From assembly GCA_050184475.1 (NCBI GenBank), contig JBFXAH010000001.1, positions 59,604-123,603 on the forward strand: DNA of 64,000 bases, read 5' to 3'. The notes under the pieces were generated by a model. That model saw only the letters and a list, made by a program, of their open reading frames with translations. It was not told where the DNA came from and made no database searches. Shown in pieces: positions 17,623 to 20,549 of this stretch (its first letter is position 1; the number at the start of each line of letters is the position of its first letter). Both the position numbers and the translations under genes were made by a program. This DNA is from Pirellulales bacterium (GTDB lineage: Bacteria > Planctomycetota > Planctomycetia > Pirellulales > JAEUIK01).

Positions 17623-17642
17623 CGCGTCTGGTCACCTCGGGT

Positions 17643-17715
17643 AGGGGGCAGGGGGCAGGGGTTAGAGATCAGGGGGCAGGGACTAGGGGGCAGAGGTCAG
17701 GGATTAGGGATCAGC
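17643..17715. repeat. G-tract / 'cagggggcagg' degenerate tandem repeat (potential G-quadruplex on the + strand)
   Basis: agggggcagggggcaggggttagagatcagggggcagggactagggggcagaggtcagggattagggatcag contains at least 6 runs of G3-G5. It lies 20-95 nt upstream of the start codon (17622) of the minus-strand phosphoesterase gene. Confidence 0.8.
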
Positions 17716-18544: not shown

Positions 18545-19096
18545 ATGCACTGGTTCCGGTTCAAGCTCTCGACGGTCCTGATTTTGACCGCGATTGCGGC
18601 GTGGGCGATGACTATGCTCGTGCGTTTGCCAGTACTTGTTCTCACCTCTCCGACGACCGCAGACTATGTTGAGATTGACCATTTCGGCGATTCGAAGGGA
18701 GTCGAGAGGATGCGACAGCAGTTTCCCGGCTGGCAGCCCTCAATTGAACGTCGTCTCGTGATTGGCGCGCGTATGATTCAGCCAGCGCTTGCTCTTGTCG
18801 CCTTCCTCGCCTGGAAAGCCGCCTGGGCCGCGATCGCACGTCGACGGAGAACTCGCCCCGACGGGGCGGAAGTCAATAGCCAGGCGGCGCAAGCCCCTGG
18901 AACGCGAGTTCGCGCCAAAGGTTGCTCGACTCCCATGAGCCCTGAAGGGGCGATAGGTTTTCTTCGTGGCCTGATGGGCGGACTGTCGCCCCCGTGGGGC
19001 TATCTCGCGCTCGAAGGTCATCGCTCGTGGCGCGCCGATCTCCAGGGGCTGCCGCCCCTGGCTATTGACTGGGGCCGCGTTGCGGCCCACGGGTGA
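18545..19096 (+). CDS. Small membrane protein, paralog family 1 of 3 (N-terminal WFRFKLSTVLILTAIAAW anchor); the 3' third reads through a palindromic repeat element
   Basis: Track ORF. The N-terminus MHWFRFKLSTVLILTAIAAWAM is shared with 19226.. and 19789... A second hydrophobic segment is PALALVAFLAWKAAWAAIARRRR. The last ~75 codons coincide with repeat 18872-19069, so the true C-terminus is doubtful. Confidence 0.5.
   Translation: MHWFRFKLSTVLILTAIAAWAMTMLVRLPVLVLTSPTTADYVEIDHFGDSKGVERMRQQFPGWQPSIERRLVIGARMIQPALALVAFLAWKAAWAAIARRRRTRPDGAEVNSQAAQAPGTRVRAKGCSTPMSPEGAIGFLRGLMGGLSPPWGYLALEGHRSWRADLQGLPPLAIDWGRVAAHG
18872..19069 (+). repeat. Palindromic ~200-bp repeat element, copy 1 (13-bp terminal inverted repeats gtcaatagccagg / cctggctattgac)
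   Basis: Direct repeat of 20189-20389, about 80-90% identical by eye. Similarity extends into the flanks (about 18815-19115 vs 20110-20445). Terminal inverted repeats and internal GC hairpins are readable directly. Confidence 0.8.
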
Positions 19097-19225
19097 CCGC
19101 GCACCCAAGAGCGAAGGGTACAGTCCCCCTCGGCACTGCTTCTGCGAAGAAGTGGTACACTCTGACTGACGCCATCTGGCGTCGCAGAGACGCAAGGTTC
19201 GGCGCCGCGACGCTCGCGCGGCAGA

Positions 19226-19708
19226 ATGAATGGCATGGCCGAGCAGCCCAAGCGCCGCTGGTTCCAATTCCGGCTGAGCACGTGGTTCGTGCTGGTGGCG
19301 ATCGTAGCCTGCGCGATGACTCCACTCCCGCACTATTTCCTAACGACGACATTGCTGTTCGCCGCCATCACGGTGGCGGTAATCGCCTGCGAAAACATGA
19401 GCGCGAATCCCAAGATTGAAACGGGTCTCGCGTCGATGTCAACCGGTCTGATGCTGGTCCAATTCTCCGCGTATGCAGCGCTCGTCGTTTATACTCGTGT
19501 TGTTCGCATCGCGCGGCTGGAATGGTTGATAGCGTTCGTCAGCCTGGAATTGATCCTGTTCGTCTGGTCGACATTGCTGCTGTTCGCAACGGCTAGCGAA
19601 CCGACCAGCGACAGGCGGTCTACAGTACAAATCGCCAATCTTGCAGTGCTCGCCACAACATCTCGAGTTATGTTCGAGTTCTTAACAATGCGGTCTATCG
19701 ATTTGTAG
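19226..19708 (+). CDS. Multi-pass small membrane protein, paralog family 2 of 3 (N-terminal RRWFQFRLSTWFVLVAIVA)
   Basis: Track ORF with the same N-terminal motif class as 18545 and 19789. About 4-5 hydrophobic segments. No family recognised. Confidence 0.5.
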   Translation: MNGMAEQPKRRWFQFRLSTWFVLVAIVACAMTPLPHYFLTTTLLFAAITVAVIACENMSANPKIETGLASMSTGLMLVQFSAYAALVVYTRVVRIARLEWLIAFVSLELILFVWSTLLLFATASEPTSDRRSTVQIANLAVLATTSRVMFEFLTMRSIDL

Positions 19709-19788
19709 TCGCATCGGAGTCAGGTGGGGAGCCAGACGTGCGCGGGCTTATTCGACGCTGCGAGGCCCGCGCGGCAGAGTAGATAGCA

Positions 19789-20209
19789 ATGCACGAGCAG
19801 CCCCCACGCCGCTGGTTCCGCTTCAAGCTGTCGACGGTCTTGATTCTGACGGCGATCGCGGCCTGGGGGATGGCGTGCCGGCCGTGGGGACAATACAAGC
19901 ACGACGCACTGTCGATACCGGCGCTGACCAAGACTATCCATTTCGAAGTCCGCTGGGACATCCCGAACGTGTCTTCCGAACGTCCGTTCCCGACGCCGTC
20001 AAACAAACATTGGCTTCGCATTAAGCGCAAGCTTCGCGTCGGCAGCTCCAGTCCATTTTTTTTCGCTCGTCATTGGGCCACGACGAGTAATTTGGCCCGC
20101 GATTGCCCTGGCCGTCTTCCTCAACTGGAAAGCCGCGTGGGTTGTGGTCGCACGGCGACGTCGCAACACTTGCCCCGACGGGGCGATCGTCAATAGCCAG
20201 GGGTGCTAA
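19789..20209 (+). pseudogene. Frameshifted paralog of the 18545 gene (frame switches at a T8 run, 20056-20063)
   Basis: The N-terminal part (frame of 19789) reads MHEQPPRRWFRFKLSTVLILTAIAAWGM.... After the T8 run, the frame of position 20063 reads SLVIGPRRVIWPAIALAVFLNWKAAWVVVARRRRNTCPDGAIVNSQGC*, with TAA at 20207-20209. That aligns with RRLVIGARMIQPALALVAFLAWKAAWAAIARRRRTRPDGAEVNSQ of the 18545 product. Confidence 0.55.
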
Positions 20210-20389
20210 CCCCTGGAACGCGAGTTCGCGCCCGGTGTTTATTCCTCAACGCCCACGAGCCCTGAAGGGGCGGCAGGTTTTCTTCGTGGTCTGCCTGGCA
20301 GACTGTCGCCCCGGTGGGGCTAACACGCGCTCGAAGGTCAGGGCTCGTGGCGCGCCGATCTCCAGGGGCTGCCGCCCCTGGCTATTGAC
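20189..20389 (+). repeat. Palindromic ~200-bp repeat element, copy 2
   Basis: Same 13-bp terminal inverted repeats as copy 1. Perfect internal 13-bp stem ccacgagccctga (20253-20265) / tcagggctcgtgg (20338-20350). End hairpins ccagggg-tgctaa-cccctgg and ccagggg-ctgccg-cccctgg. Confidence 0.8.
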
Positions 20390-20435
20390 TGGGGCCGCGT
20401 TGCGGCCCATTGGTGGCCGCGCAGGCAAGAGCGAC

Positions 20436-20508
20436 GGGGACGGGAGTTGTTTCCGGCCTTCGTTGTTGAATCATTCTTGGTCGCTGCCCGGAAACGACTC
20501 CCGTCCCC
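20436..20508. terminator. Long stem-loop (21-bp stem, 31-nt loop) between convergent genes; candidate bidirectional terminator
   Basis: ggggacgggagttgtttccgg (20436-20456) pairs with ccggaaacgactcccgtcccc (20488-20508), with a single G.U position. It lies 42 nt beyond the sulfatase stop (20550, minus strand) and downstream of the plus-strand paralog locus. No obvious U-tract. Confidence 0.45.
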
Positions 20509-20549
20509 TTGGGGCTACAGCGGATAGGGCTAGTTAACCCCCTCTCCGG

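Follow-up and report, generated by a model that had tools for sequence, protein, structure and literature searches.

In classical IS200/IS605 insertion sequences, the subterminal hairpins of the left end and the right end are unlike each other and lie on one strand, terminal inverted repeats are missing, and insertion takes place 3' of a fixed tetra- or pentanucleotide. Systems that combine repetitive extragenic palindromic (REP) sequences or REPINs with REP-associated tyrosine transposases (RAYTs), together called REPtrons, were reportedly described by Nunvar in 2010 and by Bertels and Rainey in 2011. Here we compared with these systems two palindromic elements, copy 1 and copy 2, which overlap the 3' ends of two tandem paralogous genes in a 64,000-nucleotide (64-kb) stretch of a Pirellulales bacterium (contig JBFXAH010000001.1, positions 59,604 to 123,603; this whole stretch is called the window below, and coordinates refer to it). 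The same sequence lies in contig JBFWND010000004.1 of a Pirellulales metagenome-assembled genome, and a second assembly has this locus too. The object itself is of an ordinary kind, a palindromic repeat of a Y1 transposon-like system. Probably, the two copies are non-autonomous, palindromic derivatives of a Y1 transposon-like unit that is widespread in Planctomycetota, resembling miniature inverted-repeat transposable elements (MITEs) and REPINs, and they go back to one insertion that was copied together with a gene.

Three further descriptions come close to this family. TnpA-Y1 transposases of subclass 1.2 have the signature Y---Q--HH, a short core and a conserved C-terminal domain; their copy numbers are low, they generally have no terminal secondary structures, and most come from Cyanobacteria and Bacteroidetes (Quentin et al. 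2018, PMC6006769). The tyrosine-transposase genes of several species, including Koribacter versatilis, are flanked by long inverted repeats (TIRtrons/TIRYT), which form moderately abundant families and often occur as dimers or clusters (Di Nocera et al. 2013, PMC3733652). The third is Acido-Lenti-1 (Rfam RF01687), reported from 89 sequences of Acidobacteria and Lentisphaerae and rated as probably RNA on the basis of covariation and as not cis-regulatory, with the sole comment that it is sometimes near group II introns (Weinberg et al. 2010, PMC2864571). The RF01687 seed contains clustered copies 70–200 nucleotides (nt) apart and includes K. versatilis, Lentisphaera araneosa, Geobacter and two Rhodopirellula baltica sequences; Rfam and the 2010 paper present the family as a probable trans-acting small RNA (sRNA) and mention no transposase, and the Rfam description does not mention repeats either (PMC2864571). 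Our literature search found no paper linking RF01687 with a transposase, and the papers found on REP, REPIN and RAYT in Planctomycetes and on palindromic repeats in Gemmata and Rhodopirellula do not describe the present family.

Each copy in the window consists of two inverted half elements, and each half comprises hairpin A1, the tail GTCAATAG, hairpin B, a spacer, hairpin A2 and GACAG, in this order. The limits given below are those of a covariance model of the three hairpins (R1), built from 81 half elements (alignment A2) and searched against the window with the filters off. The parts are as follows, a prime marking those of the right half.

18851–19090, no strand: copy 1, a transposase-less palindromic element of 240 nt with two inward-facing halves and a 24-nt centre at 18958–18981.
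18851–18957 (+ strand) and 18982–19090 (− strand): the halves of copy 1, matched by R1 at 54.8 bits (E = 1.9e-11) and 57.8 bits (E = 3.5e-12).
18855–18867 (+ strand): outer hairpin A1 of copy 1, GCCCC-GAC-GGGGC, read as P-D-G-A in the host open reading frame (ORF).
18872–18900 (+ strand): tail GTCAATAG and hairpin B of copy 1 (CCAGGCGGC-GCAA-GCCCCTGG), with a 1-nt insertion relative to the family consensus and no stop in the loop.
18939–18951 (+ strand): inner hairpin A2 of copy 1, GCCCT-GAA-GGGGC, followed by GATAGG at the place of GACAG in the family consensus.
18988–19000 (− strand): inner hairpin A2' of copy 1, with ACTGTC before it on the + strand.
19042–19069 (− strand): hairpin B' and tail of copy 1, CCAGGGGCTGCCGCCCCTGG CTATTGAC on the + strand, from the sequence and R1.
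19072–19088 (− strand): outer hairpin A1' of copy 1, GGGCCGC-GTT-GCGGCCC, from the sequence, the inverted repeat and R1.
20168–20410, no strand: copy 2, 243 nt, with the same order of parts as copy 1.
20172–20184, 20189–20216, 20259–20271 and 20278–20301: A1, tail with hairpin B, A2 and the centre of copy 2.
20308–20320, 20362–20389 and 20392–20408: A2', B' with tail, and A1' of copy 2.
20168–20277 (+ strand) and 20302–20410 (− strand): the halves of copy 2, matched by R1 at 58.7 and 61.0 bits.

R1 gave exactly four matches in the window (55–61 bits, E about 1e-12), all covering the full model, with the next best at 13 bits, and neither R1 nor blastn detected further copies within the 64 kb. 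An earlier description made from the letters alone, referred to here as the sequence-only reading, had reported a palindromic pair of about 200 bp, and all of the sequence features that it listed are present. The pair is real, although its extent had been set too short, since the outer hairpins GCCCCGACGGGGC (18855–18867 and 20172–20184) and GGGCCGCGTTGCGGCCC (19072–19088 and 20392–20408) lie outside the limits then drawn. The inverted arms found by the repeat finder are 42–46 nt long and 74–76% complementary with a perfect terminal 13 nt, and take in GCCCCGACGGGGC at the left end and GGGCCGCGTTGCGGCCC at the right end; in being small and non-coding and in having terminal inverted repeats, both copies are MITE-like. 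The end sequence GTCAATAGCCAGG occurs exactly four times in the window, on the + strand at 18872 and 20189 and on the − strand at 19057–19069 and 20377–20389, and of 100 shuffled sequences, a single one had five matches when up to two mismatches were allowed. Copy 2 repeats copy 1 in direct orientation 1320 nt further on, which the repeat finder reported as a 200-nt repeat at 89% identity, and the term "highly structured" was justified by RNA folding z scores of −4.96 for copy 1 and −6.67 for copy 2, equaled in none of 200 shuffles.

To place the copies in a family, we scanned one genome per species with the pattern GTCAATAGCCAGG-N8-11-CCCCTGG. The end motif occurred in at least 120 stretches of at least 66 assemblies; among the matches listed, 63 assemblies are labelled Planctomycetota and 3 have other labels, and the carriers include Pirellulales, Gemmatales, Isosphaeraceae, Planctomycetaceae, Thermoguttaceae, Singulisphaera acidiphila and Bythopirellula polymerisocia. 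Conservation starts sharply at AGCCCC. The relatives begin with A1 (consensus cAGCCCC-raa-GGGGCg), continue with 3–4 bases, the 8-nt tail GTCAATAG and hairpin B (CCAGGGGC-GNNA-GCCCCTGG), and then have a spacer of variable length (about 22–40 nt in the complete unit, 20–29 nt in most copies; the spacers of the window copies, at ~40 nt, are longer than in most relatives), followed by A2 and GACAG. The commonest continuation is a short centre and then the mirror image of the full series, so that the order A1-B-spacer-A2-GACAG...CTGTC-A2'-spacer-B'-A1' is identical in relatives and window. In the first 100 related loci, for which the R1 pairs were counted, there were 216 R1 matches, and 57 inward-facing pairs whose halves are no more than 70 nt apart constitute gene-less elements of 122–250 nt, mostly 177–250 nt. 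Gene-less dimers are thus the commonest form in the related loci.

The structure of the halves is conserved by compensatory change. Standard base pairs filled 95.4% of the cells in alignment A2, versus 28–58% when the partners were slid against each other. The sequence-only reading had named, as an outcome that would speak against it, a sequence with two copies only and no conserved structure or compensatory changes; instead, changes on both sides of a pair were found at 10 pairs in 62 cells, versus 9.0 in shuffles (0 of 500 shuffles reached this number), and helix 1 of the family model had compensatory changes at all five of its pairs. The outer pairs of hairpin B were fixed by the scan pattern and hence could not vary in alignment A2, and its innermost pair was C-G in 72 sequences and T-A in 8. 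Of 28 elements, 17 have unlike A1 stems in their two arms (e.g., GTCCC versus GCCGC), and the local hairpin of each arm is perfect nevertheless, indicating that the conserved features are the local hairpins and not the complementarity of one arm to the other. We could therefore discard one long hairpin as the selected structure, because the arms often differ exactly where each still pairs locally.

Several loci have an ORF behind the half element in the place of the mirror image. By tblastn, this ORF was present in 11 of 120 loci among the matches listed, and it encodes a protein of 149–150 amino acids (aa) with Pfam Y1_Tnp (PF01797) at 80–93 bits. The protein passes the NCBIfam IS200/IS605 equivalog model NF033573 (58–67 bits versus a cut-off of 55), and the solved structures closest to it are IS200/IS605-family transposases of Deinococcus, Helicobacter and Sulfolobus, among them the TnpA proteins of ISDra2 and IS608. 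Alignment A4 contains the motifs DHVH and Y-x3-Q-x2-HH, with Y114, Q118, H121 and H122 invariant, and a conserved C-terminal extension, ...FQEEF..LL..H....DERY.WD, in which R145, Y146 and W148 are invariant. In 10 of the 11 loci, inward-facing halves 486–629 nt apart bracket the transposase gene, each bracketing end being a ~92-nt composite of three hairpins; the start codon lies 2–60 nt past GACAG, and CTGTC follows shortly after the stop. A transposase-bearing element with the same ends thus exists. The exception is L098 (2279–3182), where the gene lies between two complete gene-less elements and the halves face outward. Three of the transposase genes have in-frame stops, and most of the contigs with a transposase gene are short. 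A profile search returned at least 7,996 homologous protein clusters at E ≤ 1e-10, and the homologues are named "IS200/IS605 family transposase" at NCBI and, for many, "RayT" at JGI. Since the gene-less dimers match a gene-bearing unit whose two ends have been joined, they represent a non-autonomous transposon derivative. Of the two options in "MITE-like or structured RNA", as the sequence-only reading had phrased it, the first is the one backed by the evidence: ends in at least 66 assemblies, mostly gene-less dimers, and a bracketed Y1 gene.

Dispersal was visible in individual metagenome-assembled genomes (MAGs). At five sites of the Gemmataceae MAG MFD01633.bin.2.60, the elements are 81–85% identical while the 120-nt flanks are ~50% identical, and pairs in one Pirellulales MAG and one Isosphaeraceae MAG show the same contrast (over all within-genome comparisons, 81–88% for elements and ~50–59% for flanks). 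Similar elements between flanks of near-chance identity indicate that the repeats have dispersed in those genomes.

Compared with the REPtrons, the family has a broadly similar short hairpin with a conserved single-stranded 5' tag, which reads ATAG here and GTAG in REPs, and it shares a majority of gene-less inverted dimers, a Y1 HUH gene bracketed by repeats, tandem clusters like bacterial interspersed mosaic elements (BIMEs), and copies overlapping the 3' ends of genes. It differs in its transposase, which is not a RAYT (Y-x3-Q-x2-HH versus Y-x3-NP), and in its composite three-hairpin end of ~92 nt, versus a single REP of 20–40 nt. Within the tag GTCAATAG, ATAG denotes the four stem-adjacent bases, and some RF01687 seed sequences have GTAG on that strand. 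The R. baltica REP families GTAG-20 and GTAG-21 (Di Nocera 2013, PMC3733652) were considered as the same family and rejected, as their sequences, also in translation, are different. With IS200/IS605, the family has in common a transposase that passes the family model and Pfam Y1_Tnp, hairpins at the ends, and the absence of a visible target-site duplication. The signature Y-x3-Q-x2-HH, the short core and the C-terminal extension resemble subclass 1.2, an assignment based on the motif, whereas the genes here are found in Planctomycetota and come with three-hairpin ends and many gene-less copies. The likeness to the TIRtrons, by description only, lies in the dimer-forming repeats, and K. versatilis, which carries such repeats, is also in the RF01687 seed.

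From these comparisons we propose the following course. The complete unit would be a 150-aa single-domain IS200-like Y1 HUH transposase gene between two inward-facing ends of ~92 nt, and the window element would be both ends head to head with the gene gone. On the model of IS200/IS605 and REP/RAYT, single-stranded DNA would fold into the hairpins, and the invariant tail GTCAATAG beside hairpin B may be the determinant of recognition or cleavage. A transposase supplied in trans would then recognize and cut the hairpins and move the gene-less copies; this mobilization by the transposase is what we infer from those two systems. In the window, an insertion 1–2 codons past ARRRR of a small membrane-protein gene would have replaced the native tail and stop, and a later tandem duplication would have copied gene and element together. 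The element would now provide the C-terminal codons, copy 2 ending them with a stop in the loop of hairpin B, and copy 1 would have lost that stop through a loop insertion and substitutions, resulting in an 80-codon read-through absent from homologues.

Several observations weigh against this proposal. The ends are inverted repeats of ~92 nt and have no conserved flanking target, which sets them apart from classical IS200/IS605. We detected neither a conserved target nor a consistent target-site duplication at the ends of 52 elements or of the window copies. For single-strand transposition by Y1 enzymes of the IS200/IS605 family, no target-site duplication is expected. The transposase fails the RAYT model NF047646 (REP_Tyr_transpos) with 22.8–27.3 bits against a cut-off of 80, one protein having no match at all. 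The sequence-only reading had noted that no transposase is present, which is true of the window: tblastn found no Y1 transposase gene in the 64 kb. The only two copies in the window are accounted for by duplication, leaving no sign of mobility in this genome, and the within-genome divergence in other genomes (the 81–88% identity given above) speaks against recent bursts. A metagenome search with the left spacer of the window subfamily, CCCTGGAACGCGAGTTCGCGCC, returned no further subfamily copies; three contigs had matches of 22–24 nt, which were taken as chance because of this length and because R1 did not recognize them. Finally, the right halves of the two copies are 94.5% identical and the flanks 74%, a discrepancy for which constraint and gene conversion are candidates.

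Some related loci have further arrangements. L053 (2763–3668 and 4194–4539) contains at least 10 half elements in tandem, one every ~80 nt, on one side of the transposase gene and four more on the other, arrays that resemble the BIME-type clusters of REP sequences. Repeats occur in the flanks of the elements at L058 550–770, L077 7596–7798, L090 2130–2331 and L026 2176–2403: in three of them the flanks are inverted repeats of 10–12 nt that enclose the element in a larger palindrome, and in one a direct repeat of 17 nt stands on either side. Labels other than Planctomycetota belong to L002 and L062 (Acidobacteriota), L026 (beta proteobacterium, on a 1.7-Mb contig) and L067 (Bacillota); these MAGs have exact matches to the end motif, and L062 carries a complete gene-bearing unit. 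Horizontal transfer, mis-binning or mislabelling could account for the end motif in MAGs assigned to other phyla.

The genes in which the two copies lie are the following.

18545–19096 (+ strand): host ORF of 183 aa; residues 1 to ~102 belong to a small membrane-protein family, and the translation of the element begins at ~18851.
19226–19708 (+ strand): middle paralogue of 160 aa, with the common N-terminal motif and no element.
19789–20209 (+ strand): third paralogue, frameshifted; the N-terminal frame is 19789–20196, and the WKAAW frame runs from at least 20018 to 20209, ending inside copy 2.
20207–20209 (+ strand): TAA stop of the WKAAW frame of the third paralogue, in the loop of hairpin B of copy 2.

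In the host protein family, the N-terminal motif RRWFRFRLSTVLILTAIAAWAMA and the C-terminal motif FLAWKAAWAVVERRRR are strongly conserved and the middle is variable. The homologues are mostly 107–135 aa long, cover ~55% of the 183-aa query and stop 3–12 residues past RRRR (FLAWKAAWAVVERRRR), and none of them has the read-through tail. Apart from one weak entry, the small-protein family (P0002–P0043) has no Pfam match. In addition to the three tandem paralogues, at least one more member (P0010) is encoded elsewhere in the same genome. The frame change of the third paralogue coincides with a T-run at 20053–20062, and this paralogue is either a pseudogene or the product of a homopolymer sequencing error.

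In the window, the element starts 1–2 codons past RRRR. The C-terminus WKAAW..ARRRR..PDGA.VNSQ had been described as conserved, which holds for WKAAW..ARRRR, a part of the protein family; PDGA is the translation of hairpin A1 and VNSQ that of GTCAATAGCCAG, from the tail of hairpin B, so that this second part is element sequence. The TAA at 20207–20209 does fall within the first large hairpin of copy 2, in its loop, as the sequence-only reading had placed it. In the corresponding loop of copy 1, a 1-nt insertion and substitutions abolish the stop, and the ORF 18545–19096 spans the whole element, as had been seen, with an extension of 80 residues in place of the ~70 then estimated. Judged from the sequence, this 80-residue tail is foreign and is translated element sequence. 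Translations of the repeat (...SPEGA.VNSQGREPL..., ...RPFRA...) probably give rise to "hypothetical proteins" in annotations of Planctomycetota, and other spurious long ORFs cross the elements at 18740–19333 (− strand), 20246–20428 (− strand) and 20103–20537 (+ strand).

The identity between copy 1 and copy 2 varies along the locus.

Upstream flank (75 nt): 73%
Left half: 80%
Centre: 79%
Right half: 94.5%
Downstream flank (35 nt): 74%
Further downstream: chance level

On both sides, therefore, the two copies have homologous flanks, and the simplest history is one ancestral insertion and then a tandem duplication of the gene with the element. Between the two explanations left by the sequence-only reading, duplication of the element together with the gene is accordingly favoured over targeting of the site. 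P0002 in L126, which at 68% identity is the homologue nearest to the host gene, was examined as an empty site and rejected, because its genomic context is another one and other hairpins follow. In L126 (1674–1800), from a Pirellulales MAG, a GGCCCC-TGC-GGGGCC hairpin lies directly past the P0002 stop and two more GC-rich hairpins come after it. R1 matches there weakly, at 20.8 bits, and these hairpins may be a degraded or a different repeat at the same relative position.

We next consider whether the module is a functional RNA, either the Acido-Lenti-1 sRNA or a cis-acting 3' stabilizer or terminator of mRNA as for REP sequences, the RNA role being what keeps the repeats. In E-value mode, all four A1+B modules of the window match the full RF01687 model (1–46) on the opposite strand: 18854–18900 (− strand, 30.6 bits) and 19042–19087 (+ strand, 27.3 bits) in copy 1, and 20171–20216 and 20362–20407 (33.2 and 27.3 bits) in copy 2. 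None of the window modules reached the gathering score of 37 bits, and a search of the whole window at the gathering threshold was empty. Against the relatives, RF01687 gave 48 matches of 37.6–57.8 bits in 18 loci, and in L031, L053, L062, L076 and L103 its matches flank the transposase gene, the strand being opposite on the two sides. To judge by these scores, the repeat family as a whole belongs to RF01687, and the window copies appear as diverged members. The 46-nt module of RF01687, in which a 12-nt linker starting with GCUA joins a hairpin of 8 bp and a 4-nt loop to one of 5 bp and a 3-nt loop, is the likeness, and this two-hairpin plan with its GCUA linker is found in the window sequence CCAGGGGCTGCCGCCCCTGG CTATTGACTGG GGCCGCGTTGCGGCC. 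The difference is that RF01687 models A1+B only, whereas the unit here adds the spacer, A2, GACAG, the inverted dimers and the flanking of a transposase gene.

Besides this match to a whole RNA model, itself rated as probably RNA from covariation (Weinberg et al. 2010), an RNA role is favoured by the position of both window copies at the 3' ends of genes, by the G-N-N-A loops of hairpin B, and by a T-rich stretch behind A2 of copy 1 that the terminator scan picked up. However, covariation is expected just as much for DNA hairpins recognized by a Y1 transposase, and the module occurs on both strands within each element as well as on opposite strands either side of the transposase gene. In the alignment of relatives, G.T and A.C mismatches were equally frequent (5 versus 5), indicating that neither strand has the wobble tolerance expected of a strand-specific RNA. 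The terminator scan found 3 sites versus 2.9 in shuffles, which is no excess, and repeat elements typically show such features as the tandem arrays of L053, with their 80-nt period, and an associated transposase. A structured-RNA role is not needed for the data, and no strand asymmetry favours it; we regard it as unlikely. The reverse claim goes further than the window: RF01687 would be not an RNA gene but the hairpin module at the ends of a very widespread repeat system, which a Y1 transposase with the subclass 1.2 motif would drive. This system would have persisted through the orders of Planctomycetota, its 28-nt recognition hairpin staying almost unchanged. In this full form the claim is put forward tentatively, as a possibility with somewhat less than even chances.

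The remaining explanations fare worse. A mere local segmental duplication of a private palindrome, with no family or conserved structure behind it, has in its favour that the 64 kb contain no more than the two copies and that the flanks are homologous on both sides; yet the same architecture in at least 66 other assemblies, with compensatory changes and a transposase gene, refutes this reading and leaves it a very small probability. Equally improbable is a conserved protein-coding C-terminal domain or coding repeat with an incidental palindrome. The ORF 18545–19096 is open through copy 1, and a gene with exactly that product is called in two public assemblies, but the tail is in no homologue of the host protein, the same-frame reading of copy 2 ends at the stop in hairpin B, the relatives occur in both orientations with a tandem period of 80 nt that is not a multiple of 3, and the stems covary at the nucleotide level. 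Least credible are integron attC sites or CRISPR repeats behind small gene cassettes: three small same-strand ORFs stand in a row with structured palindromes after two of them, but the ORFs are paralogues of one another rather than unrelated cassettes, no integrase or cas gene is nearby, the elements of 240 nt have four to six hairpins and, in relatives, their own transposase, and the array spacing is irregular (80, 156, 157 and 203 nt).

Other repeats lie near the locus. Directly upstream of the start (17622) of an 892-aa gene on the − strand, a G-rich tandem repeat at 17639–17714 has units of 7 and 21 nt (GGGCAGG and TAGGGATCAGGGGGCAGGGAT) in ~3.5 copies. Between this gene and the small-gene cluster, the intergenic segment 17772–17915 contains 4–5 copies of TTTGCGTCCGGGTG, which could be a set of protein-binding sites. 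Between copy 2 and a convergent sulfatase gene, a 21-bp inverted repeat (20436–20508; 95% complementary, 31-nt loop, RNA fold z = −5.15) is terminator-like without a T-run and is unrelated to the repeat family (13 bits with R1).

For the locus, these results mean that the 80-residue tail of the 183-aa "hypothetical protein" of public assemblies is a translated repeat, that part of its apparent conserved C-terminal motif belongs to that repeat, and that the two palindromes are probably one old insertion, later copied by gene duplication. For Planctomycetota, the family is a source of spurious ORFs and assembly breaks in MAGs. The RF01687 sRNA family may have to be re-read as a transposon end, and if the link between RF01687 and the transposase holds in the original Acidobacteria and Lentisphaerae genomes, RF01687 would be re-annotated as a repeat end. 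If this is true, transposases of subclass 1.2 would gain a DNA substrate that is testable in vitro.

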